DNA of 64,000 nucleotides from a virus. The position numbers were made by a program, and so were the translations under genes. Below are positions 9,845 through 46,210 of this stretch, piece by piece. The notes under the pieces were generated by a model. That model searched no databases and was not told the DNA's origin. It saw nothing but the letters and a program-made list of their open reading frames with translations. The DNA is taken from positions 17,645-81,644 of IMG/VR virus record IMGVR_UViG_3300020596_000020, one strand, 5' to 3'. Every line of letters starts with the position of its first letter. Position 1 is the first letter of the stretch.

Positions 9845-10035
9845 GCCACTCGTGAGTAGTTTAGTTGCTCGAATGACGAATCAGATTGCCACCACGGATT
9901 ACGACTCGAGTCTTCAAGCGATCGGCACTCCCACTTCTTGATCAGGATGTCACCATCACGACGACAGTCAATCACGACGAAGATTTCATCGTGCAGACTC
10001 GAGTAGTAGACCTCGCCGACACGATTACACGTCAC
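9841..10035 (-). CDS. small hypothetical protein (GxxW/Y family)
   Basis: GTG 10035: RVGEVYYSSLHDEIFVVI...YSRVA. Confidence 0.55.
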   Translation of the reverse strand: MTCNRVGEVYYSSLHDEIFVVIDCRRDGDILIKKWECRSLEDSSRNPWWQSDSSFEQLNYSRVA

Positions 10036-10483
10036 CGAAAAATCTCTCTTGGAACACGCGAGTGACGACGCTTCGCAAGGCATCAAACATGGGGCGTTGG
10101 TACTGATGACACTGAGGCATGCTCGTGATCGGGAACCACGCCACTTGGTAGTTCTCTTCATCCATAGGGAAAGGCACGGTGTCGACGGTGTTCTCGATGC
10201 CCACGACGGGGATCGCGAGGAAGATGTGAACAGTCTTGCGTTCGTTGCCGGCGTTGACCTCGACGCTGCCAAGAAGTTCAGGCAGGACGAGAACGGCGAC
10301 GCCGGTCTCCTCGTAGGTCTCGCGCGCGGCCGTGTCGATGTCGTTCTCGTTCGACTCGGTATGACCTTTGGGAAAACCCCACATGTCTTGCTTAGCGCGT
10401 GGTCTGACGAGCAAAACCTCATACATACCATGTTCACCCAGACGGATGGTGGCTGTGCCGCAACTGGTTGTAAGCTTCTTCAC
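10025..10483 (-). CDS. Nudix hydrolase
   Basis: Nudix box WGFPKGHTESNENDIDTAARETYEETGV. Confidence 0.92.
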   Translation of the reverse strand: MKKLTTSCGTATIRLGEHGMYEVLLVRPRAKQDMWGFPKGHTESNENDIDTAARETYEETGVAVLVLPELLGSVEVNAGNERKTVHIFLAIPVVGIENTVDTVPFPMDEENYQVAWFPITSMPQCHQYQRPMFDALRSVVTRVFQERFFGDV

Positions 10484-17795: not shown

Positions 17796-18625
17796 GGGGC
17801 GCCGGTGCCTGAACCGCCGCTAGCTGCCGACGGCGCGCCGCCCCCGCCAGGCGCTCCGCCTGCGCCGGCCGCGGCAGGGCGGTCAGCGAAGCGTTCGCCT
17901 TCGAGATCACGTTCCGACTCCAATTCGATGTCGAAGTTCGCACCGAGGACTTGTTTGAAGTTCTCGGCGGCGTCGGGGCCATACTTCTTCGCGACGTGGT
18001 TGTAAGCGCGGCGTGCGATGGTCGCCTTCATGTCGATCAGTGTGTCGGTACGGTCGACAAGGGTCGCGATGTCGCTTGCAAAGTCGGTCGCTGAAAACTG
18101 TTGCTCCTTCTCAGGATCCGTCGGGTCCATCTCCATATTCGCGGTGCCGGTCGCGTCGAGCGTCTCGCTCGCCTTCTGAAAGTAGCCGTCGAGCGCAACA
18201 TCGATTGAATCGTTGGCAATCTGCTGGACGTCGCCAGGTTGGATCTCTGGCTCCTCGGCAAGCATCCGACGGCCACGTGTGAGCTCCTCAGTGACGAGCT
18301 GCGCCAGACGTGAGGCCACAGCGGTCTGGTAGACAGTGACACCCTCGAGCATCTCAAGACTCTCGGCGACGACTTCGTCCTGCGCGGCCGTGTCTACGTT
18401 CTCCAAGAACAGCTCAGCAGCTAACTGAATACGATCGAGGTTCTCAACCATCTCGCGGCGCGTCACGGTGTGAGTGCATCGGTCGGCGATGTTGTAGAGA
18501 TGTTTGTCGATGCGTGTGACGATGGCACGAACACTCGACAGAGACGCCATGTACGGGTCGTTCAGGGCTTCCCGTAGTGAGCTAGCGAGTCGGTTGATCT
18601 CAGACTTAATTTCGCTGACTTTCAT
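17792..18625 (-). CDS. hypothetical protein (probable virion protein)
   Basis: 277 aa, acidic, Gly/Ala tail; coupled to the SOD gene. Confidence 0.7.
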   Translation of the reverse strand: MKVSEIKSEINRLASSLREALNDPYMASLSSVRAIVTRIDKHLYNIADRCTHTVTRREMVENLDRIQLAAELFLENVDTAAQDEVVAESLEMLEGVTVYQTAVASRLAQLVTEELTRGRRMLAEEPEIQPGDVQQIANDSIDVALDGYFQKASETLDATGTANMEMDPTDPEKEQQFSATDFASDIATLVDRTDTLIDMKATIARRAYNHVAKKYGPDAAENFKQVLGANFDIELESERDLEGERFADRPAAAGAGGAPGGGGAPSAASGGSGTGAP

Positions 18626-19383
18626 CCCATCACCTCTTTCACGGCAGTGACTCGCTTGAAGCGGTCTTCGATGACTTCCCAGTTTAACTCACGCATCATC
18701 GCGGTCAAGTAACCCTTCTTGTCACCGGCGTAGTCACGCACATAAGCGTGTTCCCAGAGATCGATGACGATGATCGGCAGAATGCCCACCGGAACTCCTT
18801 GATCGTGACTGTCGATCGTCACATTAATCAACCGCTTGAGAAACAAACTGTACCCACAGACAACCCAACCAGACCGCGACGCGAGCGCTGCGGCCATGAA
18901 GTCCTTCATCCACGCGTCGAAAGTGCCCCAATCGCGAGACAGGTAGATGTACGAGTCCGAGTCCTGGAAGAGCTCCGAGTTGAGATCGAAACAGTTCGCA
19001 AAGAAGAGCTCATGCAGGTAGGTCGCGTTGAGATTGTAGACCTCGTCCTTCTTTACCGAGCGGTACGCGGAGTGCGCCGAGCTGACGTTCTCTTTGTCGG
19101 CTGCGTCGACCTCAGCGCTGACGCGAGTCAGTAGCTCGGTATAGGACTTATAAAGCTGCTCGTGATGCTTCTTGGCCGGCTCAGATAGGTGATTAGTCGT
19201 CATGGAGTACGACTTGTTCTGCGCCACATAGGCCTCGTCAAGGAACGAACTCTTCGATTGCGCGGTCTTCCTGTCTTTGCCACGAATCTCGGCCGCGACC
19301 TCCTTGACGCATGCCGCAGCGAGGTCAGAGATGTCGGCGTCGCTAAACTCCGGGATGTGCAACTTAGTCAAGATCGAACCCAC
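18622..19383 (-). CDS. sod: Fe/Mn superoxide dismutase family protein with N-terminal extension
   Basis: KHHEQLY, YLHELFF, SGWVV, DLWEHAYVRDY metal-ligand motifs. Confidence 0.88.
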   Translation of the reverse strand: MGSILTKLHIPEFSDADISDLAAACVKEVAAEIRGKDRKTAQSKSSFLDEAYVAQNKSYSMTTNHLSEPAKKHHEQLYKSYTELLTRVSAEVDAADKENVSSAHSAYRSVKKDEVYNLNATYLHELFFANCFDLNSELFQDSDSYIYLSRDWGTFDAWMKDFMAAALASRSGWVVCGYSLFLKRLINVTIDSHDQGVPVGILPIIVIDLWEHAYVRDYAGDKKGYLTAMMRELNWEVIEDRFKRVTAVKEVMG

Positions 19384-19839: not shown

Positions 19840-20430
19840 TCATAAATTTCCGGTCCCCAGGTCGGCGTACTTCACAACCTCGATGCCTGAAGCACACAGA
19901 ATCACAAGACCTTCATTGTTTCTGTAACTTTCGAGGTACACGACGCGACTAACTCCTCGATTGACGAGGATCTTCGCGCACATCTTGCAGGGCTGAGTCG
20001 TCACGAAACAGACCGAGTCATGCAGGTCGTCTCGAGACTTTGTGAGCGCGTTTACCTCGGCATGAATGCACCCGCAGTTGCCAGGTTCGCAGCTATCGCA
20101 ACCGTTTGGGCCGCCAGCGTAGCTGCCGTTGTAACCGGAACAAAGCACGCGCATCATATTTATGTCGGTAAAGACAGCTCCAACCTGGAGACGGTCGCAG
20201 GTAGCCTGCTTCGCCATCTCACCAGCATGGATCATATATATCTGTTCTTTTCGTGGTCGGTAGCTGACAGCGTTAACGTTTGGCTTGACGTACGCGACAA
20301 GCTTCTCGGGCACAATGATCAGTTTTTTCGCAGGCAACCCCGTAGCCGCCTCAAGTGCTGCATCGATCGCTTGACGCACCTCGGGTTCAAGGTCGCACGA
20401 ATTACTCTTGAAGGAGTTTTTCTCGGTCAC
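19840..20430 (-). CDS. dCMP deaminase
   Basis: TCDRLQVGA, GYNG, HAEVNAL, PCKMCAK. Confidence 0.92.
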   Translation of the reverse strand: MTEKNSFKSNSCDLEPEVRQAIDAALEAATGLPAKKLIIVPEKLVAYVKPNVNAVSYRPRKEQIYMIHAGEMAKQATCDRLQVGAVFTDINMMRVLCSGYNGSYAGGPNGCDSCEPGNCGCIHAEVNALTKSRDDLHDSVCFVTTQPCKMCAKILVNRGVSRVVYLESYRNNEGLVILCASGIEVVKYADLGTGNL

Positions 20431-20549: not shown

Positions 20550-21110
20550 TCATACATCCTCGAGACACGGGTGGTGCGCGCGACAACGAGGCTCGTAACT
20601 CTCCTTTCCACCAATGACGATGTCACCCACGACGTCGTCAATCTTGCGATAAGTGTAGAAGGCGTCGCGACCGCATACCGAGCACGCACTGGGGCACTTA
20701 ACCACCTTTGTGGCCCATGGCAGGATCCTGGAGACCTCGTCGAACGGCTTGCAGGCGTACGACAAGTCTAGAGTCGCAACGACCACGTCAACACCGCGAT
20801 TGTAGAACCAAACCAGCGTGTCGGCCACGTTATCAAGCATGAAGAGTTCGTCGACGACGATGAGACTGTTGTTGAAGTCCTTCGCGTTGTCAAGCATGTA
20901 CGTCTCGATATCACGGCCGGACTTGACACATACGGCCGGGATGGACCAACCCATGTGCGTCACGATGTTCTCGGATGAGTAGCGGTTGTCGACCGTCGGT
21001 TTGAAGGCGTGAACCTCACGACCGGCGTGACGATGCTTTTCGACCTCAAGCAGCATCCTACTTGTCTTGCCGCCCCACATCGGTCCGCAATAAACGGTCA
21101 AATTGTTCAT
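20550..21110 (-). CDS. tdk: thymidine kinase
   Basis: GPMWGGKT, FKPTVDNRY, VDELF, CSVCG, IGGKESYEPRCRAH. Confidence 0.95.
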   Translation of the reverse strand: MNNLTVYCGPMWGGKTSRMLLEVEKHRHAGREVHAFKPTVDNRYSSENIVTHMGWSIPAVCVKSGRDIETYMLDNAKDFNNSLIVVDELFMLDNVADTLVWFYNRGVDVVVATLDLSYACKPFDEVSRILPWATKVVKCPSACSVCGRDAFYTYRKIDDVVGDIVIGGKESYEPRCRAHHPCLEDV

Positions 21111-21340
21111 TCCACTTTCGATCTTAGCCGCTCAGCGATGTTTATCGCGTAGGCAGCCATGTAGCCGTTGGTGTACTCAAAGCCGTCGGCTTTTTCAAGC
21201 TGTTTCATGATGAGCTCGATGTCGCCGCCGACCACGTGATCACGTAACAACAGATATAGGAAAGCAACGAGCTTGTCGTCGCTCACCACATTGTCGGACC
21301 GGTTCTTGAGCCCCGCGTTCACTTCGTCACCAATCGACAA
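21107..21340 (-). CDS. hypothetical protein
   Basis: 77-aa coupled ORF. Confidence 0.6.
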   Translation of the reverse strand: MSIGDEVNAGLKNRSDNVVSDDKLVAFLYLLLRDHVVGGDIELIMKQLEKADGFEYTNGYMAAYAINIAERLRSKVE

Positions 21341-22122
21341 CGATCAGGCAGGCTCCGCACGCTCTTCGCGCCGGCTGAACAGCACAACTCGAGCAGATTC
21401 TCGCGCATAGCGTCCGCGATGGACTTGACGATGAAGTCGAGATCTTCATCTGCGGCGAACGGGCCGCCAAAGTGGACGAGCGCCGCGTCAGCCCCAGCGA
21501 CAAGCGCCTTGCAGACGTCGGTCGTGCTGCTCGCCGTCGAGATGACAGGCACGTCGATCGCACGTGAGATCGACTCGATGAGTGTGATGCGTGGAACTGA
21601 GATCCCGATCGACTCGAGCCGAATGGTGGTCGCTGCCTGCGTCGGCCCAACGAGGATGGCGGCAGCCACCTGTAGTTCGTTCGCGAGCGCGAGCGCGTGA
21701 CGCGTTGACAGCGAGCAGCCAATCACCAGCGCCTGCGCGTCGTCGGTGAGTGTGCGGATGTCGGCCATGCTGTCGGCGCGAAGCGGGTCGAAACGCTCGA
21801 ACAGCTTGTAACCGAGCATTTCGACCTTGACGTTCTTATCGTTCGTGACCAGCTCATCCTCGGTCGACGACATGTTCGCGAGCGGGATCTGCGAGGCAGG
21901 CGCGCCGGCGGTAATGAGACCGTACTTGCGACAGACTTCCTCCATCTTTGAGATGCCTTCCGGGTCGTCGTAGTAAACGATCAATGGAAGCGTCGAGTGA
22001 AGCGTCCCCAATATGAAAGAGAGATCTGGATCGGTGACCTCTTGCTCGTACGAAACGTACTTCTCGTCGATGAAGACATTCACATCTTCGTAGTCGTACT
22101 TGTTGTTTTCGCGGTGATTCAT
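21319..22122 (-). CDS. IMP dehydrogenase/GMP reductase-like protein, catalytic Cys absent
   Basis: YDYEDV, GISVPRITLI, VPVI, DVCKALVAGADAAL, GAKSVRSL match the IMPDH/GMPR pattern; the GSICTT loop is replaced by PTQAATT. Confidence 0.65.
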   Translation of the reverse strand: MNHRENNKYDYEDVNVFIDEKYVSYEQEVTDPDLSFILGTLHSTLPLIVYYDDPEGISKMEEVCRKYGLITAGAPASQIPLANMSSTEDELVTNDKNVKVEMLGYKLFERFDPLRADSMADIRTLTDDAQALVIGCSLSTRHALALANELQVAAAILVGPTQAATTIRLESIGISVPRITLIESISRAIDVPVISTASSTTDVCKALVAGADAALVHFGGPFAADEDLDFIVKSIADAMRENLLELCCSAGAKSVRSLPDRCRLVTK

Positions 22123-22363
22123 TCTTTCCCTCTGTCTTTCGTGATGCAAGAACACTTCACGTACCCAAGGCCTTGTTCAAAGGTTCCGAGTGATGTTACG
22201 GCGTCGACACATTGCGTCTCGCAGGCGTCGAAGTTGACACGCTTGTTGGCTTCGTAACCGGTGTCGCAGCTAGCGAACACGAGAAACAACATAAACAGTA
22301 TCACCATACCCATGAGAACGATGAAGACCGTGCCAAGGATCCGTTGCACGCTCTCCCAAAACT

Positions 22364-23365
22364 TCATCGCGTCAACTCCTTGAAGCACGCAATGGACAGG
22401 CCTTCGCGGAACCATGTTTCAAGATCTGTCATTCCCAACTTCTTGGCACGATGAGCGAGCAGAATGTGCACCCAGTCTGTCCACAACACATCACTGAGCA
22501 TGCGCGCCGCGCTGCCGATCTTCACGAGCTCGTCAGAGGTAGTCGCCGCTCGACCTTGCGCCTCGAAGATCATCATTTCCTCGATCGGGGGAGGGCCAGG
22601 CAATCGAGGCATTGCGTGACGCATCTGTGTCTTGCCGCTCGCGTTGGACAGGATGTCCTCACACATCTTGTAATGACGATCGTACACATGCATTGAATTG
22701 CTGGTATGATAGTAGAAGCCGAGCTCGAGACCAAGCTCCATCGCCATCATCTCCTGCATAAAGGTAAAGGCGGGGACGTCGAGCGCCGTGCCAAGGATGA
22801 GGTCGTTTGAGCGCATCTGAACGATGAGATGCAGCTTCTCATCACGGATGAAAAATTGCAAATTGAGCGTGCATGGCATGTCCTTCACAGCCAACATACT
22901 ATCCTGCGGCTGACGGATATGAATAACGCCGCGACGCGAGTCACGATCGCGAGTGAGCTCGTCCTTGACGTATTGCCACTGGTTCCAGCTGATGAGCGTG
23001 TCTGCCGAAGTCCACGCGTCATGATACTCATGCTGCTTGAAGATGCGCGCACCGTACGCCGAGTTGGCGGTCTTGCCATCGTCGCTAATCGCCTCCCAAA
23101 ACTTGCTATACGTCGAAATCCAAGCAGTTTCGTTGTTGCCCGAGATGTACCACAGGATCTCAGCCATAACGTAATCGAGCGGGAAGTTCCGCTCAGGCAC
23201 GTAGAGTAGTCTGTCACGCGGGTTCGTAATGACGAACGAGGTAAAGAGATTCTCGCGGATCTTCATGCCGCGAGGCGCCGTCTCATAGTCGTACCCCTCG
23301 TACGTCCCCTGAACTAGAGCGTAGTAGGCGTCGGTGAAACTCTCAAAAACCATCATCTGTTGCAT
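22364..23365 (-). CDS. thymidylate-synthase-family enzyme, probable dCMP hydroxymethylase/methylase
   Basis: AEILWY, RDSRR, DMPCTL (catalytic Cys), RSNDLILGTALD (Asp at the E. coli Asn177 position), HVYDRH. Confidence 0.8.
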   Translation of the reverse strand: MQQMMVFESFTDAYYALVQGTYEGYDYETAPRGMKIRENLFTSFVITNPRDRLLYVPERNFPLDYVMAEILWYISGNNETAWISTYSKFWEAISDDGKTANSAYGARIFKQHEYHDAWTSADTLISWNQWQYVKDELTRDRDSRRGVIHIRQPQDSMLAVKDMPCTLNLQFFIRDEKLHLIVQMRSNDLILGTALDVPAFTFMQEMMAMELGLELGFYYHTSNSMHVYDRHYKMCEDILSNASGKTQMRHAMPRLPGPPPIEEMMIFEAQGRAATTSDELVKIGSAARMLSDVLWTDWVHILLAHRAKKLGMTDLETWFREGLSIACFKELTR

Positions 23366-23523: not shown

Positions 23524-23892
23524 TCAAAGAACTTCGTCAACCTTGGCGTCAATGTTCGACAGATCACTCGAACACACCGTCGAGTTCTCGATGTAGTCTG
23601 AAGGGTTCGACTTCGTGGTTCTCATGATGCGCTCGCCTCCGAACGCTATTTCTTCAAGTTGTTCTTGTGTCATCGGAATGATGATGTCGCCAACAGCAAC
23701 GTAAGGGGTTTTACAAGCGTCGAGGTTCGCGAGCATCATTGCGAGGATCGTTGATCGGAGCAGATCGACGGAATCGCAACGATTGATACTGTTGGTGTCA
23801 TGCAGCCACGTGTACAACTCTAAGAGTCCTTTAGAGCTGAGCTGCAATTGAAGTTGATGAAACTTCTGAGTCTTGTCAGGACAATTGATCAT
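23524..23892 (-). CDS. hypothetical protein
   Basis: 122 aa; TAAGAT 6 nt upstream of ATG. Confidence 0.6.
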   Translation of the reverse strand: MINCPDKTQKFHQLQLQLSSKGLLELYTWLHDTNSINRCDSVDLLRSTILAMMLANLDACKTPYVAVGDIIIPMTQEQLEEIAFGGERIMRTTKSNPSDYIENSTVCSSDLSNIDAKVDEVL

Positions 23893-24119: not shown

Positions 24120-24334
24120 GCGACCTTCTTCCAGTAAACAGCGATGGACACACCACGATGGAACAGATCGTCCCTCTGAATGGTGAGATGACCCCTCTGA
24201 AGGGAAAACCTCTCGGATGTGATCTCGAAGTACTCATAGATCGAGTGTCCAGGTATGAGCGAGCGTTGAAGACTGACTATCCAAAAGAGGCGATCTTCGG
24301 CTTCCCACAGGTCACCAATCTTCACAATGTTCAA
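24116..24334 (-). CDS. small hypothetical protein (GxxW family)
   Basis: KIGDLW...YWKKVA. Confidence 0.55.
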   Translation of the reverse strand: MNIVKIGDLWEAEDRLFWIVSLQRSLIPGHSIYEYFEITSERFSLQRGHLTIQRDDLFHRGVSIAVYWKKVA

Positions 24335-25266
24335 AACAACGGCGACTCGAGTGCCCAGAGACGTGTCTCCTCAAGCCCAGGCCAGAAGTCGGTAAGCGGC
24401 TTGTAGCCGAGCACTCTCTGACAGGCCGAGATGTCCGCCTGGGTCGCACGCACGTCGCCGGCGCGCCAGTCGGCATGCTTGACACGTGACTGGATCTCAG
24501 GGTGTTTGGAGGCGAAGTGCTTGAGAATCTGCTTATTACTGACGCTCCCACCGGTGCCAGCGTTGAAGGCTTCGCCACGAAGACGACCTTGGTGAGCGGC
24601 CACTCGCACGAAGATGTCCACGACGTTGTCCACATGCGTCATGTCACGTGTCTGTGAGCCGTCTCCGTCGCTTCGAAGCTCTCCGTCATGCTTGATTGCG
24701 TGCAGCCATGACGAGACGACCGTCCCGTACGCGCCATTAGCAAGCTGACGCGGGCCGAAAACATTAAAGGGACGAACGCACGCAGTGTCCATGTCGTACA
24801 GATCCGCGAACATGACACAGTAGTCCTCGCCGATCATCTTCTGAAGAGCGTAGGGCGACTTCGGGTCGCGAGGCGCGCTCTCCTTAGTAGGAAGCTGCTG
24901 CGCGCCGCCGTAGACTGAGCTAGACGACGTGAAGACGAACCTTCCGACCACACCGCGGCACGCTTCCAATAGTTTCACGGTGTTGCCGACGTTCTCGTCG
25001 TTCGTCTCAGCCGGGTGCTCCACCGAGTAGGACACACGAGGACGTGCTGCGAGGTGGAACACGGTGTCAAACTGTGACTGCTTGATGAAGCGAAGCACGC
25101 TCGGATCGGCGTAGTTGCTGTACAGCGGGACCGCTCCAGTCGGAACGAACTCGACGCGACCGTTCGAAAGATCATCGACCACCACAACCTGGTGGCCCTC
25201 TTTGACGAGGCGTTCAGCGAGGTGAGAACCGATGAAGCCCGCGCCGCCCGTTACCAAAGTTTTCAT
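24331..25266 (-). CDS. NAD-dependent UDP-sugar 4-epimerase (WbpP/TviC-like SDR)
   Basis: TGGAGFIG, FHLAA, SSSSVYG, SPYALQK (YxxxK), FNVFGPRQ, RAGDV. Confidence 0.9.
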   Translation of the reverse strand: MKTLVTGGAGFIGSHLAERLVKEGHQVVVVDDLSNGRVEFVPTGAVPLYSNYADPSVLRFIKQSQFDTVFHLAARPRVSYSVEHPAETNDENVGNTVKLLEACRGVVGRFVFTSSSSVYGGAQQLPTKESAPRDPKSPYALQKMIGEDYCVMFADLYDMDTACVRPFNVFGPRQLANGAYGTVVSSWLHAIKHDGELRSDGDGSQTRDMTHVDNVVDIFVRVAAHQGRLRGEAFNAGTGGSVSNKQILKHFASKHPEIQSRVKHADWRAGDVRATQADISACQRVLGYKPLTDFWPGLEETRLWALESPLF

Positions 25267-28453: not shown

Positions 28454-28660
28454 TCACGGGCGAACGATCTCCCACCCGAAATTTTCCCACTCGCTCAGGT
28501 CCCAGTCAAACTTTGAGATGGACCCGGCCGGCCGACGATCGTCTCCCGCGTCCTCGATGACTAGCCCCCACTGGCCGTAGTCATCGATGATGACGAACGA
28601 CGCTCGTGTAAACGCGAACACGAGGTCGGTGTAGAGGATAACCGTGCCCTTGAGACTCAC
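28454..28660 (-). CDS. small hypothetical protein
   Basis: LKGTVILY...GWEIVRP; coupled to the dnaE-C stop. Confidence 0.5.
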   Translation of the reverse strand: MSLKGTVILYTDLVFAFTRASFVIIDDYGQWGLVIEDAGDDRRPAGSISKFDWDLSEWENFGWEIVRP

Positions 28661-30804
28661 AGATCGGTTCCGTCAACCTCTCGCATGTCACGGAGCGAGC
28701 AACTGAAACCGAGTTTGTCTTTCTTCACTCTCACGACGTAACAAGCGTACTTCTTGAGCTCGCTAATCTGATGCTCGGCGGTGCTCCACACGAACATGCG
28801 ATGGATGGCGCCGTCCGAGCCGTAGCACGCTAATTGGAAGAAGTTGTTGCCTGTGCGCGCGGTCTTTTTCTTACCGTCAGACAGTACCATCCAATACGTT
28901 CCGTACTTCGCAGTGGTGCATTCCTCGAGAGGCGGGATGTCGTGCGCCTTGAGCTGCATGCGTAAATCATCGTCGAGCAACGCATCGGGGTCGATAGAGC
29001 CATAGAGCTCGATCTGATTCTTCACGATCTCATCACGCGTCCAGTCAGTCAACGTCTTCGACTCCTCGATGAGCTCGGCGAGTCGGCGAGTGTGATACTC
29101 GGGGTCCTTTTTCAAGCGTTTCTTGAGTTCGGCCTGACCATCGACAATGACATGATGTAGCTGCTTGTAGTTCTCGAACGTTCTCCCCGGTCCGACGATT
29201 TGCATAGAGTCGAACGCCCCGAGTGTCACAAGTGCCCCGAGCGATTTCGAATTAAACTTACTGTGTCGCCACGTTCCGTTCTCATCCCAGAGCAGGTCCT
29301 CCAACTTACGATACGGTCGTTTCACCAGCAGCTCGTTCACAGCCGAGGTTCCGACGCCGGTGACCGTGAGGAAAGACGGGTAGAAGGTTCGGTTGTCAGA
29401 CGCGATCTCCCATTCGCGATTCGAGCGGTTGATGTCAACCTTTGCGACGTCGTAACCCATCGCCTTGATCTCGGCCAGCGCACGTCGACGCGAATCAGGA
29501 TCACCGAGCATGGATTCGACGTACGAGCAGAGCCATTCCGGCTCGTAGTAAGTCATCAACCAGGCACACTGATACGAGATATATCCGTACGAGTACGAGT
29601 GGGCGCGGTTGAAACCGTAGGCGGCGAACGCCTGTAGGTCGTCGTAGAGCAACTCCGCCTTTGCGCGTGGATAGCCTTTGGCCTCGGCGCCGTCCACGAA
29701 CTTCTCGTGCAGCTCGTCGGTCAGTGTCTTCCCCTTGGATGCGTCCTTGGTAGTGCGTTTCAGGATGGCCTTGCGCAGCTTGTCTGCCTCGACCTCGCTG
29801 AAGCCTGAGAGCTTCATTGAAATCTCCATGATCTGTTCTTGATAGATCACGAACCCCATCGTATCTTCAAGACATTCGTTGACCGCGGCGTGACCGTAGT
29901 CCTTCTTCACACCATCACGACGTGCTTTGATGTAGAGCTTGTCGACGTCGGCAGCTAACGGTCCGGGTCGGTAGATCGCGGTCGCGGCTGCCAGGTCGTG
30001 AACGCTACGAGGGTCAAGGTCAGTGATGAATCGCTGCGTGCTTGGATTCGTGAACTGAAAGATGCCGGCAAAGCGAGACTCACGGAAGACATGGTTGAAC
30101 ACGTCGCTCAGGTTCGGGTCGATGCGACTCGGCGTCAGATTATCGTCGTACCACTCCTTCACCTGCGCAAAGGTTGGGTTTCGGATCCCGCTGTGACGCT
30201 TCAGGATACGACGCACGCACCGCTCAATGATACGTAACGTGTCGAGGCCGAGGAGGTCGTACTTGACTAAGCCGTACGGGCTGAGACCCTTCATCGCCAT
30301 GCCTTCACTCCAAGGCGTCTGTAGGTCTCCGCGGACGCTGATGAGTGGCATGATGCCGTCAGGGTCGTCGTGAACGATGATGCCGCCGGCATGCTTGCCG
30401 ACAGCCTTCGTCTGCCGACCAAGGATCTTCACGTCGTTGTCGATCGCCGGGTACTTCTTCATCAGAGCGCGGAAAGCCGGCGAGTGCTCCATGCAGCCCT
30501 CGTACGTCAGCTGAACAGAACCCTTGGTGTCGTCGCCGGTATGAAGATGCGGCTTCACCTCCTGATCGAGATTCTTGGTGGCGTCGTTGACCTCGTTGAA
30601 CTCGAGCCCGTGCAGCTTGGACACGTCCTTCACGAGCGACTTCATCTGCAGACCGTTGAAGTTGCTGATGGGGACGATCGTCTTCTCGCCGAACTCCTTC
30701 TTTAGCAGGTCGATGACTTTGTCGCGATCAGAGACGTCGCAGTTGTGTGTCCCAATCCAACGATCTTCTTTCATAAAAGAAGAAATTCGATAACTTTTAC
30801 CCAC
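28657..30804 (-). CDS. dnaE: DNA polymerase III alpha, C-terminal half, preceded by a 21-aa C-intein
   Basis: MGKSYRISSFMKEDRWIGTHN|CDVSDRDKV; KHAGG, KYDLLGL, GIFQF, YRPGPL, IYQEQIM, YGFNRAHS; AGGAG SD before the GTG. Confidence 0.93.
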   Translation of the reverse strand: MGKSYRISSFMKEDRWIGTHNCDVSDRDKVIDLLKKEFGEKTIVPISNFNGLQMKSLVKDVSKLHGLEFNEVNDATKNLDQEVKPHLHTGDDTKGSVQLTYEGCMEHSPAFRALMKKYPAIDNDVKILGRQTKAVGKHAGGIIVHDDPDGIMPLISVRGDLQTPWSEGMAMKGLSPYGLVKYDLLGLDTLRIIERCVRRILKRHSGIRNPTFAQVKEWYDDNLTPSRIDPNLSDVFNHVFRESRFAGIFQFTNPSTQRFITDLDPRSVHDLAAATAIYRPGPLAADVDKLYIKARRDGVKKDYGHAAVNECLEDTMGFVIYQEQIMEISMKLSGFSEVEADKLRKAILKRTTKDASKGKTLTDELHEKFVDGAEAKGYPRAKAELLYDDLQAFAAYGFNRAHSYSYGYISYQCAWLMTYYEPEWLCSYVESMLGDPDSRRRALAEIKAMGYDVAKVDINRSNREWEIASDNRTFYPSFLTVTGVGTSAVNELLVKRPYRKLEDLLWDENGTWRHSKFNSKSLGALVTLGAFDSMQIVGPGRTFENYKQLHHVIVDGQAELKKRLKKDPEYHTRRLAELIEESKTLTDWTRDEIVKNQIELYGSIDPDALLDDDLRMQLKAHDIPPLEECTTAKYGTYWMVLSDGKKKTARTGNNFFQLACYGSDGAIHRMFVWSTAEHQISELKKYACYVVRVKKDKLGFSCSLRDMREVDGTDL
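30742..30804 (-). mobile_element. split intein C-fragment (block G only)
   Basis: Ends in the THN intein terminus, followed by Cys+1 (codon 30739-30741). Confidence 0.85.
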
Positions 30805-31825
30805 GCTTAATCTCCTGTGACAGACGATCTATTTCGTGTTTGAAATTGACTTTTGTGGCTGCTTCCCAACATATCAACACGCGACAACCAAGTTTACTCT
30901 CTATACGACGTACACGAGATTCGTTTTTAAGACGAATCTGTCCTGCTGTCATACCGGAATGAAGGAGTTTATCGGCAGTGTAGACGCTTGGATTTGCATG
31001 CCAATAGTCGCCATAATACTCAACTGCACAGTCTCGATCTGGAAGGTAAAGATCGAGACTGTAACACCAACCTTCTTCTCTATTTGAGACAAAGAACTGT
31101 CTATTCATCCAAGAATATGATTTCTCGTTCTCAAATTCCTTAAGAAGAGCGTAAATAAATTCTTCTTCTTTTGCTGACGAACCGGTCGTATGACTGTTAG
31201 GCCATTCAACGTACGGATTCACATTAGCAAACCAATTATTTTTCCCATGCGTTGAGAGCATGTTTGCTTTATGCAGATCGCGCACATTGCTAGACATCAT
31301 TGGGTACGAGACACCCAATCGTTGTTCACATGTAGCTTTGTATTTCGCTTGAATCAATGTTGACTGAAGTGGTCTATTGACACCATGACGATATCTCATA
31401 GTTGCTGTGAATTTATCTTGATATTCGTCAGTGCTATAAAAGGCTGATTTTAGACAAGATTCACAAAGAAATGTTCTCTTATGCTGACGACGTGCTGTGT
31501 TCCCCTCCATTACGTGGAGTTTTCCGCATGTTGGACACTTGAAATTGAATGCCAAAGAACCTAAAGCATACTTTTTCGCATTCTCATCGACGAAATGACA
31601 TTTTTCGTCATCAAGCACGAATTCCACGTTGTTGATCAGTAACCCGGTAGTCATCACACGCGTAGAAACTGCGTGCTTCACATTTTCGTAGCTGAACCAT
31701 GGTGTTTCGAACAGTCCGCTAAACTGTTTTCTGAGCAGATTTATTTCGCGCGAGGATTCGTCTTTGAGTTGATACCCGTGTTTCGCAGCTAACACTGACG
31801 AGAAGTTACTTCGATACTTCATCAA
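30797..31825 (-). mobile_element. free-standing Vsr/DUF559-like homing endonuclease between the dnaE halves
   Basis: CPTCG..CESC Zn finger, RHGV/RLGV repeats, LDLYLP..AVEYYGDYWH..ICWE; clearly more AT-rich than the flanks. Confidence 0.82.
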
Positions 31826-32279
31826 CGTCTAAATAGTCATTGACTTTGATAATCACGTCACCCAAACGTGGATCACTTTCATCCACGTAGACATCGAACG
31901 GAATGACACGAAAAGTGTGAGAATGTTCGACCTCAATGTCCACTAACGTTCGTATACCATGCAAAATTATGATACCAACCACGACGCAATTCTCAGATCC
32001 CTTGAGAGAGTGCCCGATTAACAGTTGTTTGGCACGAACAACTGTGTTATCATCAAGTACCATCTTGTGCTCGGCGTTACACACAATCGTTCCATAGCAT
32101 GAATCTTGTTTCACTAGTAGTTCGTAGATTATCTCATCTTTTCTAGCAGATCTTGCGTTCACGGTCAAGACTTTACGATGAGCGCCTTCGATATCGATCA
32201 CAACGTCGTTTTTTTCAACTGTCTCGATGCGCTTATAACTTCCATCTGTCATCATGATCAAATGACGAGCATCTAAACA
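31806..32279 (-). mobile_element. split intein N-fragment (157 aa; blocks A, B and F plus an acidic tail)
   Basis: CLDARHLIMMTDGSYKRIE (A), IVCNAEHKM (B), LVDIEVEHSHTF (F), then a stop with no terminal HN. Confidence 0.85.
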
Positions 32280-33755
32280 ATCGATGTCTGGAACGTCAGT
32301 GCGAGCCAACGACATGAAGCGGGCGAAGATGAGATTGTTAGAAACAGGATCGACGTCTGTGATGCCGAGCACGAAGTTGACGAGGCTGCCGGCTCCGGAC
32401 CCGCGACCCGGACCGACGAGACAATCCTTCTTGGCAACATCAAGGATCGCCTTCAGAGTGAGGAAGTAAATGGAGTTGTCGAGCTTCTTGATGACGGACA
32501 GCTCGTTCTTGAGTCGCGCGACGTAGGCCGGTAGATGGGCCAACCGCTTCGCGCGCATGCCCTCCTTGCAACTCTCCACGAGCGTCTGGAACGGCGTCAT
32601 GTCGGGGCGAACGCCGAAGCTAGGAAGCTTCACGCTCGTGTCGATGGTCACGTCGCCGATGACGTCGTGCGCGACGTGCCAGGCGTTCTCGATGGACTCG
32701 GCTACGACCGCGTCGTCGTAGAACGCGTGACCCTCCTTGTACAGGTTGTACGCATCCCACATCTGATCCGCGTTCTTTGGATAGAGCTCGCACTTGAGCT
32801 GCTTCACGTCAGCCGGGATGGAGTCCGGACCGAGCTCCGAACCGCCGCGCCCCATGCGGCCAAGCAGCTTGTACACCTCGCGTGCGCGCCACAGATCGGG
32901 GCTACAGTAGTGCGAGTCAGCCGTAGCGACCAACTTGACGCCGTTCGACTTTGCGAACTCAAGCAGCACACGGTTGGTGAGGTGTTGAGGCGCTAAGCGG
33001 TTGAACTGGATCTCAGCGAACACGTTGTCGCGCCCGACGGCGTCCGTGAGTCTGTCGAACTCGTTGCCGACGGCTCGCATAACGGCGTCGCGCTTCCCAG
33101 GTTCGTCCAGGATATCTGGGGTCAACTCGTCGAACGACTTACCGGCGAACTGAGAGTACGTCGCCCAAGATGGCACGCCGGCAACGCAGGCCGTAGACAC
33201 TACGACGTCCTCGCCATGTTCCTTCAGCATTGCCGAGTCGATGCGCGGGAAGCGGTAATAACCCTCGCGCGCACTGCGAGACACCAAGCGAAAGATGTTC
33301 TCGAGGCCCTTCTGCGACTTAGGAAGCAGCACGAGGTGGTGGCGACGCTCGACCGGGTCGAGGTATTTGCCGTTACGCTTGGACGCGTCCTCGTCTTCCA
33401 CGGCGACGCCCGTGTCATCTTCGTCATTGTCCGGACGCTTGACTTTGGCAGCCTCGCGCTCTTCCTTGCGCACTTGGTCACGCGTGACTTTCGCTGCGGC
33501 CCAGTCCTTCAGACTCGGGATGTAGTATGCTTCGACCCCGGGAATGAACTTCATGGGTCGACCGTTTTTATTCAACTCCTGTGTTTTTTGGTAGCATTCA
33601 GGGAACGAGTTCATGTTTCCATGATTCGTCATAGCCATCGAGCTCATGCCATTGTCAGCAGCGAACTGGATGTGATCTCCTCCATCACCGAAGCCGTCGT
33701 AGATGCTTTTCCCATCGTGTGCGTGCAAGTTCGCGAACTTCTTCGGATTTACCAT
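31806..33755 (-). CDS. dnaE: DNA polymerase III alpha, N-terminal half (PHP domain to PDID) fused to N-intein
   Basis: NLHAHDGKSIYDG, TNHGNM, GVEAY, HLVLL, ATADSHY, GPGRGSGAGSLV, PDID|CLD. Confidence 0.93.
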   Translation of the reverse strand: MVNPKKFANLHAHDGKSIYDGFGDGGDHIQFAADNGMSSMAMTNHGNMNSFPECYQKTQELNKNGRPMKFIPGVEAYYIPSLKDWAAAKVTRDQVRKEEREAAKVKRPDNDEDDTGVAVEDEDASKRNGKYLDPVERRHHLVLLPKSQKGLENIFRLVSRSAREGYYRFPRIDSAMLKEHGEDVVVSTACVAGVPSWATYSQFAGKSFDELTPDILDEPGKRDAVMRAVGNEFDRLTDAVGRDNVFAEIQFNRLAPQHLTNRVLLEFAKSNGVKLVATADSHYCSPDLWRAREVYKLLGRMGRGGSELGPDSIPADVKQLKCELYPKNADQMWDAYNLYKEGHAFYDDAVVAESIENAWHVAHDVIGDVTIDTSVKLPSFGVRPDMTPFQTLVESCKEGMRAKRLAHLPAYVARLKNELSVIKKLDNSIYFLTLKAILDVAKKDCLVGPGRGSGAGSLVNFVLGITDVDPVSNNLIFARFMSLARTDVPDIDCLDARHLIMMTDGSYKRIETVEKNDVVIDIEGAHRKVLTVNARSARKDEIIYELLVKQDSCYGTIVCNAEHKMVLDDNTVVRAKQLLIGHSLKGSENCVVVGIIILHGIRTLVDIEVEHSHTFRVIPFDVYVDESDPRLGDVIIKVNDYLDVDEVSK

Positions 33756-35604: not shown

Positions 35605-38043
35605 TTAGTAAAGAATACCGCCGCTCGTCGGTACGTATTTCTTTGGGCCGTAATCCCAACAGAAACCGACCGTTGCTGAAGATGTGTTCGCAGCAATTGT
35701 GCCAACGCCGATGTTGTTGTTCAAAGGCGTTACCACGGTCTTGCCAGTGGCTGTTGGATTTGGGAAGATCGCTCCCCACACACCAGAAACACCGCGCAGC
35801 CTGCTGTCATTCAAGTAAATGATCATCCCTTTCCACGACAGCGGCACAGGGTTTTTGTTGGTGTAGGTGTAAACTTTACACCCGCCACTACCCCAATCGT
35901 ACGTCTTCACTGCGGTGACAACGAGAGGGAGGCAACCCTTTGCGCTGACTGTTCCCTTGACACTTGGACACAGATCGTTGACGTCGAGCACCCCATCGCC
36001 GTCAGTGTCGGTCGTCGGAGAAACGTATGTGCACGACTGACTGAGTGTGGGTGTGCCAGAGCATACAGTCGGATTCGAGGTCACCGTTCGCGTTTGCGTT
36101 CCGTTAGATTGGCAAACGTTCCAAGTCGAGTACGTGAACGTGCAAACAGGAGGAACATATGTACACGACTGTGTGAGCGACGCAGACGTCCCAACACAAC
36201 CGACCGGCAACGAAGTGACGGTTCGCGTCTGCGTTTCCGTTGACGAACACGATGACCACGTTGAGTATGTGAAGACACACGACGGAGGAGGCAAAGGCGC
36301 GCTGTCAGTCATCCAACCCGCGTTCATGAAGGGCAGCAAGCTGTTGATGAGATCATATTTGGTGCCGGTCGTCCCCACGTCGTTGTCCCAGTGACTACCA
36401 GGCTTCTCGATGAACGTCACCGGGAACCCGCGAGTCTTCAAGATGTTCATATTGTTACGCACGTTGGCGATCGCGTAGTACGTGATGGTATCGCCGGTGT
36501 GAGCAAGGTGAGCGATGTTGAGCTTCCAGCTCGCGGTCGTGGACGCCGTCATGGCAGTCACGCTCGGATTGGTGTTCTCGAAGATGAGTCCAGAGAACAA
36601 ATTTGCGTTCTTGAACGCGAGCTCGTACCCGATGTCACCGCCGGACGAGTATCCTCCGAGAATCACGCGACGCGGATCGACGTTAAAATGTGTCTTCATG
36701 TTCGCGATGGCGGCGAGGATCTTCGCACCGTCGGTCGCGTAGTTGGACCAACAAGCTCCCTCACGACCACCGACAGCAAGTGTGATCCAGTTCTGTGCGC
36801 CGCCAGGCGACACCATCCAGGCGTCGTACTGCGCCTGTCCACCGCATCCGTGGAGCCAGACGAGTAGTGAGATCGGAGTGGCGTGCGTCGCGTCGTAACT
36901 CGCTGGGACGTACGCCCAGTTGGTCTGACCGCTGTTGGTCGTAAAGACTGTGCTCTTCGTGTAGGCGATGGGGTTTGTCACCGGCGACGTTGTGGTCGGC
37001 GACAAAGTAAGGAACGGTGTGAGCCAGGCTGTCTGTGGGCGATCGACGCCTGCTTTCGGCTCGAGCGTGAGCATATACTCACCCCACCACGGTCCAGCAG
37101 CCCACCATGCCCAGCCAACGAGCACGTCAGAGTTGACGGTCGCGTACGTGAGGAAGTCCGTCACAGCAGCCTTACACGTCGACGTGTTCGGTGTTCCGAT
37201 CTCGCCGACCCAGATCTTCTTGCCGTTCTGTCGAGCCCATGCCACGACTGCGGTCATGCGAGTCGATCCAATAGTGGAGTTGACGCAATCTGTGCCGCCG
37301 CCACTACCGTCACTGTCGAAGTAGTTGTGCACCTCGAAGATCGAGTTGTTACCGCTGTCCACGTACTTGAGAAGCGCGACGGAGTTGGCCGTCCCGTACC
37401 AGGTCGCAGTCCAGCTGTGAGCGCCTGACCACGCGTTGCCAGGCACCGACACCACATTCGTCGCTCCCGTGGCTCGAATGGCCGCGGTGGCCGCGTTGGC
37501 AGTGATCACCCACTGCTCGGTGGGCATGTCGTGCGGCTCGTTGACGAGGCCGAACACAACCTTGAGATTGGACTTGTACTTGACGGCGAGTCGCGACCAG
37601 AGGTTCGCGAACACACTGGAGGGGACTTGTGTCGTGCCTACAACGCCATCATAGTAACGGGCGAAGTTGTGCGGATTAAGAACGACCGTCAAACCTTTCG
37701 ACGTCGCGTAGACGACGATGGCGTTGAGATCAGTCTCGTACGTCGGCACAAACGCGCCGTTGGCTGTCGGCTGCAGACGTTCCCATAAAAAACCGACACG
37801 AACCGTGTTCATGCCCTTACTAGCGAAATAGTCGACTTCGCTTGTTGTCGGCCAAACATAATCGGTGCCCTTGACGCCAGGCTTTGCAGTACCAAACTCG
37901 GCTCCAGCGAGATTGATGCCGTGCATCGCGGGAAGACTGACTTCAGTCTTGGGGAAGTCGCTGCGACCGATATGCGGGTAACAGCCGACGGTTATCAGCA
38001 CGGTGCTGACGATAAGAATGAGATATCGGATGATCTTGTTCAT
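35605..38043 (-). CDS. modular secreted lipoprotein: GH5 endoglucanase + alpha/beta-hydrolase esterase + TSP1-like repeats + TSP3 Ca-binding motif + CBM2-like domain
   Basis: Lipobox ITVGC; GINLAGAEFG, WERLQ, NPHNFARY, NEPH, HNYFD, GEIG, WWAAGPWW; LHGCGG, GYSSGG; CxFTYSTWxxC x2; DTDGDGVLDVNDLCP; DWGSG. Confidence 0.88.
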   Translation of the reverse strand: MNKIIRYLILIVSTVLITVGCYPHIGRSDFPKTEVSLPAMHGINLAGAEFGTAKPGVKGTDYVWPTTSEVDYFASKGMNTVRVGFLWERLQPTANGAFVPTYETDLNAIVVYATSKGLTVVLNPHNFARYYDGVVGTTQVPSSVFANLWSRLAVKYKSNLKVVFGLVNEPHDMPTEQWVITANAATAAIRATGATNVVSVPGNAWSGAHSWTATWYGTANSVALLKYVDSGNNSIFEVHNYFDSDGSGGGTDCVNSTIGSTRMTAVVAWARQNGKKIWVGEIGTPNTSTCKAAVTDFLTYATVNSDVLVGWAWWAAGPWWGEYMLTLEPKAGVDRPQTAWLTPFLTLSPTTTSPVTNPIAYTKSTVFTTNSGQTNWAYVPASYDATHATPISLLVWLHGCGGQAQYDAWMVSPGGAQNWITLAVGGREGACWSNYATDGAKILAAIANMKTHFNVDPRRVILGGYSSGGDIGYELAFKNANLFSGLIFENTNPSVTAMTASTTASWKLNIAHLAHTGDTITYYAIANVRNNMNILKTRGFPVTFIEKPGSHWDNDVGTTGTKYDLINSLLPFMNAGWMTDSAPLPPPSCVFTYSTWSSCSSTETQTRTVTSLPVGCVGTSASLTQSCTYVPPVCTFTYSTWNVCQSNGTQTRTVTSNPTVCSGTPTLSQSCTYVSPTTDTDGDGVLDVNDLCPSVKGTVSAKGCLPLVVTAVKTYDWGSGGCKVYTYTNKNPVPLSWKGMIIYLNDSRLRGVSGVWGAIFPNPTATGKTVVTPLNNNIGVGTIAANTSSATVGFCWDYGPKKYVPTSGGILY

Positions 38044-38597
38044 ATATTTTCCTTACGGTCGCTGAGACCTTCTTCGACGGCAAACTCGATCTCACGTAAC
38101 TCGCGGTCGAGATCTTCGTCTGAAGTATCAAGAAAGATATGACGTGTCTTCAGGCGCGGCGCGCACTGCTTGTAGAGGGTGTCGATCGCCGTGATCTGGT
38201 CCTCTTTGATGGTGATATCATCTTCGTCGACCCGGCCAACGTACCCCTGTAGTCGGGTACACACGACGATAAGCGCGTTCATGCGTGCGTACGCTTCATC
38301 GAGCTGCGCGACGACATCAGGGTCGGTCGGGCGGCCGAAGTGTTTCGAGTAGACAATCTCAGATGGAAAGTTGCGGTCAAGAATGACCGATGTGTCAGTC
38401 TGCTCAAGGAAGTCCGCCAGCGTCGTCTCGCCAAAACGGAGGAAGGGCAGAAACTGCGACCGGTCGCTCATGAAGAACTTCTTCTGGACTTGCGCCTTAA
38501 AGATCGGAATGTCGAGACTGGCAGAGAGAGCCTTAGCAATCTCAGTTTTTCCGACCCTCTCCGTCCCTTCTAGGATAATGATTCTCTGTTTGCTCAT
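38040..38597 (-). CDS. deoxynucleoside monophosphate kinase-like P-loop protein
   Basis: IILEGTERVGKT, ILDRNFPSEIVY. Confidence 0.75.
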   Translation of the reverse strand: MSKQRIIILEGTERVGKTEIAKALSASLDIPIFKAQVQKKFFMSDRSQFLPFLRFGETTLADFLEQTDTSVILDRNFPSEIVYSKHFGRPTDPDVVAQLDEAYARMNALIVVCTRLQGYVGRVDEDDITIKEDQITAIDTLYKQCAPRLKTRHIFLDTSDEDLDRELREIEFAVEEGLSDRKENI

Positions 38598-39177: not shown

Positions 39178-39443
39178 TCTTCCTCCTCAGGCCCAAGGAA
39201 CTTCTTGAACCACTCAACGACCTCGTCGTCGTCTCCGATCATGAGCCATGAGGCGTCGTAATGAAGGCTAGCATACTGCTCGCTTCGCCAACGCCAAAAC
39301 ATGAACGCTTCCGCCGCGCTCAACTCGGCGAACATGCGTGCTCGTAGAACATTACGAATGCGTGAGATATCGGCGATCCCACCCCAATTGCCCCAGCCGG
39401 TGAGGAACAAGAATCTCTGATCCACACGTTGTTGAATTGTCAT
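39174..39443 (-). CDS. hypothetical protein
   Basis: 89-aa coupled ORF. Confidence 0.6.
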   Translation of the reverse strand: MTIQQRVDQRFLFLTGWGNWGGIADISRIRNVLRARMFAELSAAEAFMFWRWRSEQYASLHYDASWLMIGDDDEVVEWFKKFLGPEEED

Positions 39444-40249
39444 CGGATGATCAGCTCCCCCACCTTACCGCGACCCATACCGTTGCTGTTGATCGAGCGA
39501 CGCGCCTGCACCTCATACAAATCGAACATCTTATAGAGCTCGCGCACGAGCGGTGTGTCCGAGTTGGACAACATAACATGTACGCCACGCGACTTTAGAT
39601 CAAGCGCAAGGTCACGCAAACGCAGCTGCTCGGGCGCACCGAACCCGTTGGCTGTGTAATCAACGAAGCTCGTTGCAGTCAGCGGGATGTACGGAGGATC
39701 GAAGTAGACTAGGTCACCTTCACTAGTGTGCTTGTCGACGTCGCCGAAATCCTCGGTGTTGAGATACAAATTCGGCGCGCGTAAAGCGATCGAACACGCC
39801 ATCAGATTCGCCTCGTCGAGGAACATGCCGGACCGATCGCCCCCGTACGGGACGTTCATGCCGCCGCCGGCGTTCTCACGCCAGAGACCGTTGAAACACG
39901 TCTTGTTGAGGAAGATAAACCGAGCCGCAGCCTCGGGCTCTGCGAAGAACACGGACCCTTCCTGATTCAGGAGATCACGCTGTTCGTAATAACACTTCTT
40001 CGTGCGCTTAAAGGTGCGCATGTGAGAGACGACTTCTTGTAGATCCTCTTTAATACAGCGGAAGGCGTTGACGAGACGCGGGTTGAAGTCAGACAGATAC
40101 GCCGTCTTCGGCGCGAGCGCGAAGAACAGGGCGCCACCGCCGAGGAACGGCTCGTGGTAAGTCTTGAACTCCTTGGGAGCGAGCTCGAGAAGGTGTGGCA
40201 AAAGTTGAGTTTTTCCTCCAACCCAACGCAAAAAAGGTTTCATTTTCAT
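39440..40249 (-). CDS. dam: Dam-family DNA adenine methyltransferase
   Basis: RWVGGK, EPFLGGGA, FNGLWREN, YFDPPY, SNS. Confidence 0.93.
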   Translation of the reverse strand: MKMKPFLRWVGGKTQLLPHLLELAPKEFKTYHEPFLGGGALFFALAPKTAYLSDFNPRLVNAFRCIKEDLQEVVSHMRTFKRTKKCYYEQRDLLNQEGSVFFAEPEAAARFIFLNKTCFNGLWRENAGGGMNVPYGGDRSGMFLDEANLMACSIALRAPNLYLNTEDFGDVDKHTSEGDLVYFDPPYIPLTATSFVDYTANGFGAPEQLRLRDLALDLKSRGVHVMLSNSDTPLVRELYKMFDLYEVQARRSINSNGMGRGKVGELIIR

Positions 40250-41428: not shown

Positions 41429-41498
41429 ACAGATCAATGTACTGCGTCGTTTACAAGAGGTTACTCTGCTCGATGACTAGGTTAGATTGTAGATTCCG

Positions 41499-46138: not shown

Positions 46139-46210
46139 TAATACTCCTTGACGAGGTTGAAATACAGCGAGACGACAAGTGTTATTAAAGAACAACGACG
46201 CCGATTATAT

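Follow-up and report, generated by a model that had tools for sequence, protein, structure and literature searches.

Predicted deoxycytidylate 5-hydroxymethyltransferase of MilA-like architecture in an uncultured lineage of jumbo phages

The window analysed here is a stretch of 64,000 nucleotides, bases 17645-81644 of an 81.6-kb contig from the IMG/VR database (record IMGVR_UViG_3300020596_000020). The gene of interest is a single open reading frame (ORF) at 22364-23365 (-), which starts with ATG and codes for a thymidylate synthase homologue of 333 aa, containing RSNDLILGTALD, that is predicted to act on cytosine nucleotides. The gene is embedded in a replication and nucleotide metabolism block which also encodes a deoxycytidine monophosphate (dCMP) deaminase, thymidine kinase (Tdk), thymidylate (dTMP) kinase (Tmk), a dUTPase-family protein and ribonucleotide reductase, as well as DnaB, RecA, two FEN nucleases, an ATP-dependent ligase, Fpg, Dam, an intein-split DnaE, hydrolases of the Nudix, HD and NT5C types and three nucleotide-sugar enzymes. 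CheckV puts the completeness of the 81.6-kb contig at 24%, which implies a genome in the jumbo phage range, of about 300 kb or above. When 20 kb of the window was compared with GenBank phages by Megablast, nothing matched, and, because a DnaE protein search finds no isolate with more than 27% identity, no cultured relative is available.

The 333-aa protein matches PF00303, the thymidylate synthase family (2e-27, 96 bits against a cut-off of 24.3), and PHROG families labelled thymidylate synthase, and the invariance of its catalytic Cys165 and of the phosphate-binding residues Arg144/Arg145 and Arg185 places it in this superfamily; no further PF00303 gene is present in the 81.6-kb contig. In the MAFFT alignment with E. 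coli ThyA (taken from NC_000913), MRSNDLILGTA-LD stands opposite QRSCDVFLGLP-FN, the equivalent residues being R185 and R166, S186 and S167, D188 and D169, G192 and G173, and D196 and N177. The aspartate that the original prediction had placed at the Asn177 position is therefore borne out. It is no chance substitution, since Asp196 is kept in all 28 family members (48-80% identity) and in 146 of 146 representatives of at least 230 aa, which were drawn from the best 150 of 9057 HMMER matches (431 at E 1e-30 or better). The other key residues of the protein are E69, W90, S102-x-Y104, D162, T166, H226 and Y228. A bona fide ThyA (EC 2.1.1.45) was rejected, as D196 replaces Asn177, D162 replaces Leu143 and every NCBIfam ThyA equivalog cut-off (327 bits or more) was missed by the best score of 78 bits. 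The HMMER search also recovered longer proteins of ∼470-550 aa (P0140-P0147 and others), in which the N-terminal ∼240 residues form an Asp-type ThyA domain and the ∼260 aa added after it are uncharacterised.

The active site was compared with a reference set consisting of T4 gp42; RB69 gp48 and its counterparts from Acinetobacter phage Ac42 and Rhizobium phage RHph_N34, all of the 5-hydroxy type; the enzyme of Xp12, a 5-methylcytosine phage (MT664984); the deoxyuridine monophosphate (dUMP) hydroxymethylases SPO1 gp29 and that of SP10; and E. coli ThyA. At positions 80, 143, 146, 147, 165, 167, 168, 169, 173 and 177 (E. coli numbering; R21 was left out because the alignment is unreliable there), ThyA reads W L C H Q S C D G N, Xp12 W N C P L S S D G D, the three 5-hydroxy enzymes A E C T M S Q N V D, and SPO1 and SP10 M D C N N S N D G N. 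T4 gp42 and the window protein both read W D C T M S N D G D, and they are identical at positions 58, 80, 94, 126, 127, 143, 146, 147, 165-169, 173, 177, 207 and 209. MRSND...G...D is common to the two, and the remaining motif pairs are NSAYG/NSNYG and DMPC/DFMC (window protein and T4 gp42, respectively). The signature of hydroxymethylation proposed in PMC6400193, an Asp or Glu three residues before the catalytic Cys together with Ser/Thr-x-Tyr, is present as D162-M-P-C165 and S102-A-Y104 and is invariant across the 28 family members, while the Asp177 of the T4 gp42-type dCMP hydroxymethylases is represented by D196. According to the MetaGPA study (PMC8670742), Asp177 and a residue other than His at 147 are the top marks of PF00303 proteins on cytosine-modified phage contigs and co-occur with dCMP deaminase and DNA ligase, both of which are encoded here. 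The earlier proposal that the enzyme acts on dCMP and not on dUMP, and that the phage modifies cytosine, is well supported by this predicted active site and its context.

The choice between ribose and deoxyribose has been traced to two positions. Arg126 and Ser167 specify deoxyribose, MilA, the mildiomycin CMP 5-hydroxymethylase, has Lys and Ala instead, and its A176S/K133R mutant switches to dCMP (PMC5175136). Because the window protein carries R144 (Arg126) and S186 (Ser167), its residues indicate a deoxyribose substrate; the Lys and Ala pair of the MilA type was found in 4 of the 146 representatives only. This bears on the reading of the gene as an ordinary thymidylate synthase, or as a MilA-like, ribo-specific CMP hydroxymethylase serving a nucleoside metabolite, for which PF00303 membership and MilA as the best full-length match would speak. 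It is hardly credible given that neither Asn177 nor Leu143 is present, that the protein scores far below all ThyA equivalog cut-offs, that both MilA and BcmA have Lys and Ala where Arg144 and Ser186 stand here, that the gene is located within a DNA replication block and that its relatives encode ThyX.

By sequence, the closest solved relative is indeed MilA (E 2.5e-42, residues 6-305), with ThyA at 1e-13 to 1e-17 and T4 gp42 at 1e-10. The AlphaFold model built from alignment A1 (predicted local distance difference test score, pLDDT, 91.5) was superimposed by Foldseek on MilA (5JNH, 5B6D) with template modelling (TM) scores of 0.83-0.87 over 330 columns, including the C-terminal five-helix domain, and thus displays the MilA/BcmA architecture of a thymidylate synthase core followed by that domain. 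As the 5-hydroxy-dCMP synthases of RB69 and DLP3 likewise have MilA as their top structural match (PMC13326640), this likeness leaves the product unsettled. The case for a 5-hydroxy-dCMP synthase like RB69 gp48 or DLP3 gp80, which would depend on flavin and O2 and give the phage O-glycosylated 5-hydroxycytosine, is that such enzymes share an acidic residue at 143, Asp177 and an adjoining YorR/Tmk-like kinase and sugar genes (PMC13326640), and that nucleotide-sugar enzymes are encoded in the window. The D169N replacement regarded as diagnostic of these synthases (PMC13326640) is absent: Asp169 is retained as D188 in the window protein and in 146 of 146 representatives, whereas RB69, Ac42 and RHph_N34 have Asn169. 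In addition, Trp80 and Gly173 are retained here in place of the Ala80 and Val173 of the 5-hydroxy enzymes, which also form a separate clade, so that a 5-hydroxy product seems very improbable.

The phylogeny that had been proposed as a check agrees with the residues. In the maximum-likelihood tree, the family of the window protein forms a single clade (Shimodaira-Hasegawa-like approximate likelihood ratio test, SH-aLRT, 96) inside the hydroxymethylase radiation, which is split from E. coli ThyA and Xp12 with a value of 98 and from the 5-hydroxy clade with a value of 99; T4 gp42 is a long branch placed near the family with weak support. A dCMP 5-methyltransferase of the Xp12 type, which would give the phage 5-methylcytosine, could be suspected from the Asp177 common to both enzymes, from the E. 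coli ThyA N177D mutant that yields 5-methyl-dCMP (cited in PMC8670742) and from the dCMP deaminase adjoining the gene. Yet Xp12 branches outside the radiation, position 143 is Asp here as against Asn in Xp12 and Leu in ThyA, and the T147 and M165 of T4 recur here where Xp12 has P and L. The MilA-like C-terminal domain of the model, moreover, appears to leave the folate site open and would be ill-suited to hydride transfer, and the β-glucosyltransferase-like enzyme and the carbamoyltransferase encoded by relatives (see below) require a hydroxyl group. Taken with these points, 5-methylation is quite improbable.

The gene product is therefore best read, with a probability that we put at about 0.75, as a folate-dependent deoxycytidylate 5-hydroxymethyltransferase converting dCMP to 5-hydroxymethyl-dCMP (5hm-dCMP). 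The reading is based on sequence signature, fold, phylogeny and gene linkage, from which we infer enzyme activity, incorporation into DNA, the extent of replacement and decoration. 5hm-dCMP is favoured because of the T4 gp42-like residues, the absence of D169N, the acidic residue at 143, the Arg144 and Ser186 pair and the MilA-like fold. The original prediction had left the product as 5hm-, 5-methyl- or 5-hydroxy-dCMP; diagnostic residues and the neighbourhoods of relatives favour the first of these and disfavour the other two.

In the proposed reaction, dCMP would be held through Asp196 while Cys165 attacks its C6, and the methylene of methylenetetrahydrofolate would pass to C5. Water, and not hydride, would then attack the exocyclic methylene, yielding 5hm-dCMP and tetrahydrofolate; Asp162 would activate this water, Ser102 and Tyr104 would position it, and the C-terminal helical domain of the MilA type would leave the folate site open. 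A YorR-like kinase (38040-38597), together with a host nucleoside diphosphate kinase, would phosphorylate 5hm-dCMP to 5hm-dCTP, the form in which the phage DnaE would build it into DNA. dTMP would be supplied separately by the dCMP deaminase, Tdk and Tmk of the window and, in relatives, by ThyX, and in most relatives the 5-hydroxymethylcytosine (5hmC) would then be decorated on the DNA by a β-glucosyltransferase-like enzyme or a carbamoyltransferase.

Related loci were sought in IMG/VR. A search of viral contigs with the single protein gave no match, and alignment A1 was required for the recovery of 65 loci on contigs of up to 324 kb; close relatives from the metagenome scan were short only (24.5 kb or less). 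Within a distance of 10 kb, the gene is linked to homologues of the following: the short-chain dehydrogenase/reductase (SDR) epimerase of 24331-25266 (61/65 loci), the C-terminal (28657-30804; 61/65) and N-terminal (31806-33755; 56/65) parts of DnaE, a second SDR enzyme (60/65), a superoxide dismutase-like protein (58/65), the dCMP deaminase (57/65), the P-loop kinase of 38040-38597 (54/65) and Tdk (40/65). The epimerase is the tightest partner: it is at most 150 bp away in 36 of the 61 loci, and in none of them is the distance greater than 3.5 kb. It adjoins the hydroxymethylase gene whatever the decoration cassette, including loci that carry a carbamoyltransferase and no glycosyltransferase-like gene. 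Five near-complete relatives (270-324 kb; 74-100% complete) each have exactly one PF00303 gene, of the type described here, and ThyX, the presence of which makes their dTMP synthesis independent of the ThyA homologue.

Cassettes were scored within the same 10 kb, mostly in the same gene block, and hardly ever overlap. A glycosyltransferase family of 351 aa occurs in 41 of the 65 loci, 20 of which also have UDP-galactopyranose mutase (Glf); Glf is found without it in 2 further loci, a carbamoyltransferase in 8 of 65, and a family of ∼429 aa with no assigned function in 12. The sole significant PDB match of the glycosyltransferase profile is the T4 DNA β-glucosyltransferase (E 1.7e-5, C-terminal domain), which has the same length of 351 aa, and carbamoyltransferases paired with Asp177 ThyA homologues carbamoylate 5hmC (PMC8670742). 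As both kinds of enzyme need a hydroxymethyl acceptor, they lend independent support to 5hmC as the product of the family.

Three of these arrangements deserve a separate description. At L057:10001-14722, and likewise at L012, L060 and ∼20 other loci, a block of overlapping or abutting genes on the same strand encodes, in this order, the hydroxymethylase, UDP-galactopyranose mutase (PF03275 1e-77), the T4 β-glucosyltransferase-like enzyme, a YorR-like kinase and a GalE-like epimerase. Such a gene order suggests galactofuranosyl (or other galacto-) decoration of 5hmC; no report of a decoration of either kind on 5hmC was found, the galactose of RL38J1 being carried by 5-hydroxycytosine. At L038:7590-9356 and in seven other loci (L019, L021, L022, L036, L037, L041 and L055), a TobZ-type carbamoyltransferase and a conserved partner of 221 aa adjoin the hydroxymethylase gene, which is probably the known route to 5-carbamoyloxymethylcytosine, here in jumbo phages. 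Meanwhile, at L014:4406-5695 and in 11 other loci the ∼429-aa family (alignment A4) takes the cassette position, never with the glycosyltransferase-like or carbamoyltransferase genes; Pfam yields nothing for it, and the PDB nothing meaningful.

The linked deaminase raises the question whether 5hm-dCMP is an intermediate only, being deaminated to 5hm-dUMP so that thymine is replaced or decorated instead. A dCMP-family deaminase is indeed linked in 57 of the 65 loci, and metavirome deaminases preferring modified cytosine are reported in a preprint (bioRxiv 10.1101/2024.12.05.627091). Tdk and Tmk in the phage and ThyX in relatives nevertheless point to a normal supply of dTMP being kept, T4 likewise pairs cd with gp42, and 5hmC is the known substrate of partners of the β-glucosyltransferase-like and carbamoyltransferase kinds. 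This leaves the thymine route only a very small chance.

Several observations weigh against the assignment of a dCMP 5-hydroxymethyltransferase. The overall identity of the protein is 25% to T4 gp42, 28% to RB69 gp48 and 28% to SPO1 gp29, that is, 23-28% to each functional class, which therefore does not discriminate between them; T4 gp42 appears no closer than RB69 gp48 or SPO1 gp29, and so the call of the product depends on context and on only a few diagnostic positions. The 81.6-kb contig was searched for a glycosyltransferase, a carbamoyltransferase, a dCTPase of the gp56/MazG type and ThyX, and none of them turned up. ThyX, located 12-33 kb from the hydroxymethylase gene in the five near-complete relatives (G001-G005), is missing here within 40 kb on either side. 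Searches of the contig for MazG, MazG-like proteins and an RB69 gp56 homologue found none; among the large relatives, MazG was matched in one of four, and gp56-like matches, very weak ones in ORFs of 126 aa, were obtained in two. Hidden Markov models of the relatives' glycosyltransferase-like, Glf, carbamoyltransferase, 429-aa and DHH families gave no match in the contig either. The cassette-bearing relatives are only 42-55% identical to the window protein, the closest relatives examined (L002, L086, L087 and L089) are likewise without informative cassettes, and conserved gene order, when confined to one phage lineage, is by itself weak evidence of function.

These four loci (70-86% identity) share the local gene order of the window, namely helicase, epimerase, hydroxymethylase, a small membrane ORF, a TIM barrel resembling IMPDH, Tdk and deaminase. 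The barrel, a divergent IMPDH/GMP-reductase-like protein encoded at 21319-22155 (-), has its catalytic Cys replaced (GPTQAATT in the catalytic loop versus GPGSICTT) and stands directly downstream of the hydroxymethylase gene only in this sub-lineage (42-68% identity in L002, L086, L087 and L089). Because the β-glucosyltransferase-like, Glf and carbamoyltransferase cassettes are absent from the sub-lineage, while the 81.6-kb contig encodes the SDR epimerase linked to the gene, the TviB-like and UXS-like enzymes and the Cys-less IMPDH-like barrel, it is conceivable, if rather unlikely, that these phages make an undescribed derivative of 5hmC. It may be a uronic, pentose or amino-sugar adduct formed by an unrecognised transferase, or the result of a conversion by the TIM-barrel protein at the nucleotide level. 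As for the small ORF of 98 aa (22119-22415 (-)), it contains a run of hydrophobic residues, shares 52 nt with the 3' end of the hydroxymethylase gene and, being conserved in L089 (84%) and L086, is probably a real small membrane protein.

A second, atypical deoxynucleotide kinase had been proposed besides the canonical Tmk (46503-47150 (-); PF02223 7e-12, NCBIfam), and profile matches corroborate it. This P-loop nucleotide kinase of 185 aa (38040-38597 (-)), YorR-like or Tmk-like, matches PHROG 761, annotated as thymidylate kinase (4e-13), and RB69 gp45 (BLASTP, E 1e-4), and its family profile A2 has YorR (2AXP/3KB2) as its closest counterpart in the PDB, matched along the full length (E 2e-6). 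For the DLP3 gp78 kinase, encoded beside the DLP3 ThyA homologue, YorR is likewise the leading Foldseek match (PMC13326640). The window kinase is thus of the same YorR-like type as those adjoining the ThyA homologues of DLP3 and RB69 and is a candidate kinase for 5hm-dCMP.

The remaining genes of the block are likewise encoded on the minus strand. The dCMP deaminase (19840-20430; PF00383 5.8e-18), which would supply dUMP as T4 cd does, and Tdk (20550-21110; PF00265 9.5e-36) lie on the downstream side, as does the superoxide dismutase-like protein of 253 aa (18622-19383), in which the Fe/Mn superoxide dismutase domain is confined to the C-terminal part (148-241) and the N-terminal half is uncharacterised. 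On the other side are the SDR nucleotide-sugar epimerase or dehydratase (24331-25266; GalE/TviC-like, PF01370 1e-55, NCBIfam) and the split DnaE-type replicative polymerase with its intein and inserted endonuclease gene (28657-33755), which is presumed to be the polymerase for the modified nucleotide. The second SDR enzyme, dehydratase- or UXS-like (40418-41437), and a TviB-like nucleotide-sugar 6-dehydrogenase (44837-46195; NCBIfam) are possible parts of a sugar-donor pathway. The hydrolases of Nudix, HD and HAD types that had been pointed out in the window as enzymes that might remove dCTP are all present: a candidate (d)NTP pyrophosphatase with the Nudix box GFPKGHTESNENDIDTAARETYEETGV (10025-10483), an HD-domain phosphohydrolase (59883-60476) and an NT5C-type (HAD) 5'-deoxynucleotidase (44216-44815; PF06941 3.3e-16). 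A trimeric dUTPase-family protein is encoded at 56975-57433 (PF00692 7e-23). A Dam-type N6-adenine methyltransferase, an Fpg/Nei DNA glycosylase and an ATP-dependent DNA ligase map to window 39440-40249 (-), L085:9730-10542 (-) and L085:16609-17832 (-), respectively, and ligase domains are among those tied to cytosine-modified contigs in the MetaGPA study (PMC8670742). Pfam and PHROGs gave no match for 21319-22155, 23524-23892 and many other ORFs of the window.

Modification of cytosine in phage DNA is a well-known strategy against restriction, with T4 as the classic case. Should the assignment be correct, a widespread lineage of uncultured jumbo phages, represented by 65 IMG/VR loci and by genomes that reach 324 kb, would replicate 5hmC DNA with a DnaE-type polymerase, while swapping the decoration module between its sub-lineages: β-glucosyltransferase-like, β-glucosyltransferase-like with UDP-galactopyranose mutase, carbamoyltransferase, or unrecognised. 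Such a lineage would be a natural set for studying how cytosine hypermodification diversifies, as well as a source of MilA-shaped, dCMP-specific hydroxymethylases. Asp177-type ThyA homologues of phages are well documented (PMC8670742, PMC13326640), and the diversity of the cassettes beside the gene in relatives is the more interesting by-product. For annotation, the gene at 22364-23365 should not carry the name thymidylate synthase.

Compared with known systems, the protein combines, as far as its sequence and model tell, an active site of the T4 gp42 type with a scaffold of the MilA type, in a DnaE-using lineage of uncultured jumbo phages. It shares with T4 gp42 (PDB 1B5E, 6A9A; EC 2.1.2.8) E58, W80, S-x-Y94, R126/R127, D143, C146, T147, M165, R166, S167, N168, D169, G173, D177, H207 and Y209, and the partners are the same in kind, including dCMP deaminase, a nucleotide kinase and, in relatives, a β-glucosyltransferase-like enzyme. 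However, T4 gp42 is only 246 aa long, without the C-terminal helical domain of ∼90 aa, and T4 relies on the gp56 dCTPase, a gp1-type kinase, ThyA (td) and a family-B polymerase, in contrast to the YorR-like kinase and DnaE of this phage and the ThyX of its relatives. MilA has Asp at both 143 and 177 and keeps Asp169, but its Lys133 and Ala176, associated with ribose preference, correspond to Arg144 and Ser186 here, and it belongs to an antibiotic cluster rather than to phage DNA replication. The 5-hydroxy-dCMP synthases RB69 gp48, DLP3 gp80 and RL38J1 gp216 (PMC13326640) resemble the window protein in the MilA-like fold, the acidic residue at 143, Asp177 and the accompanying YorR/Tmk-like kinase and sugar genes; they differ in D169N, A80 and V173, in binding flavin and in using O2, whereas the window protein has D169, W80 and G173 and falls outside their clade. 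Finally, the Asp177-type PF00303 genes of the MetaGPA study (PMC8670742) agree with it in Asp177, the residue other than His at 147, the dCMP deaminase, the ATP-dependent DNA ligase and, for some relatives, the carbamoyltransferase, the DnaE-encoding jumbo phage lineage and the MilA-length form of the enzyme being those features that are not specifically described there.

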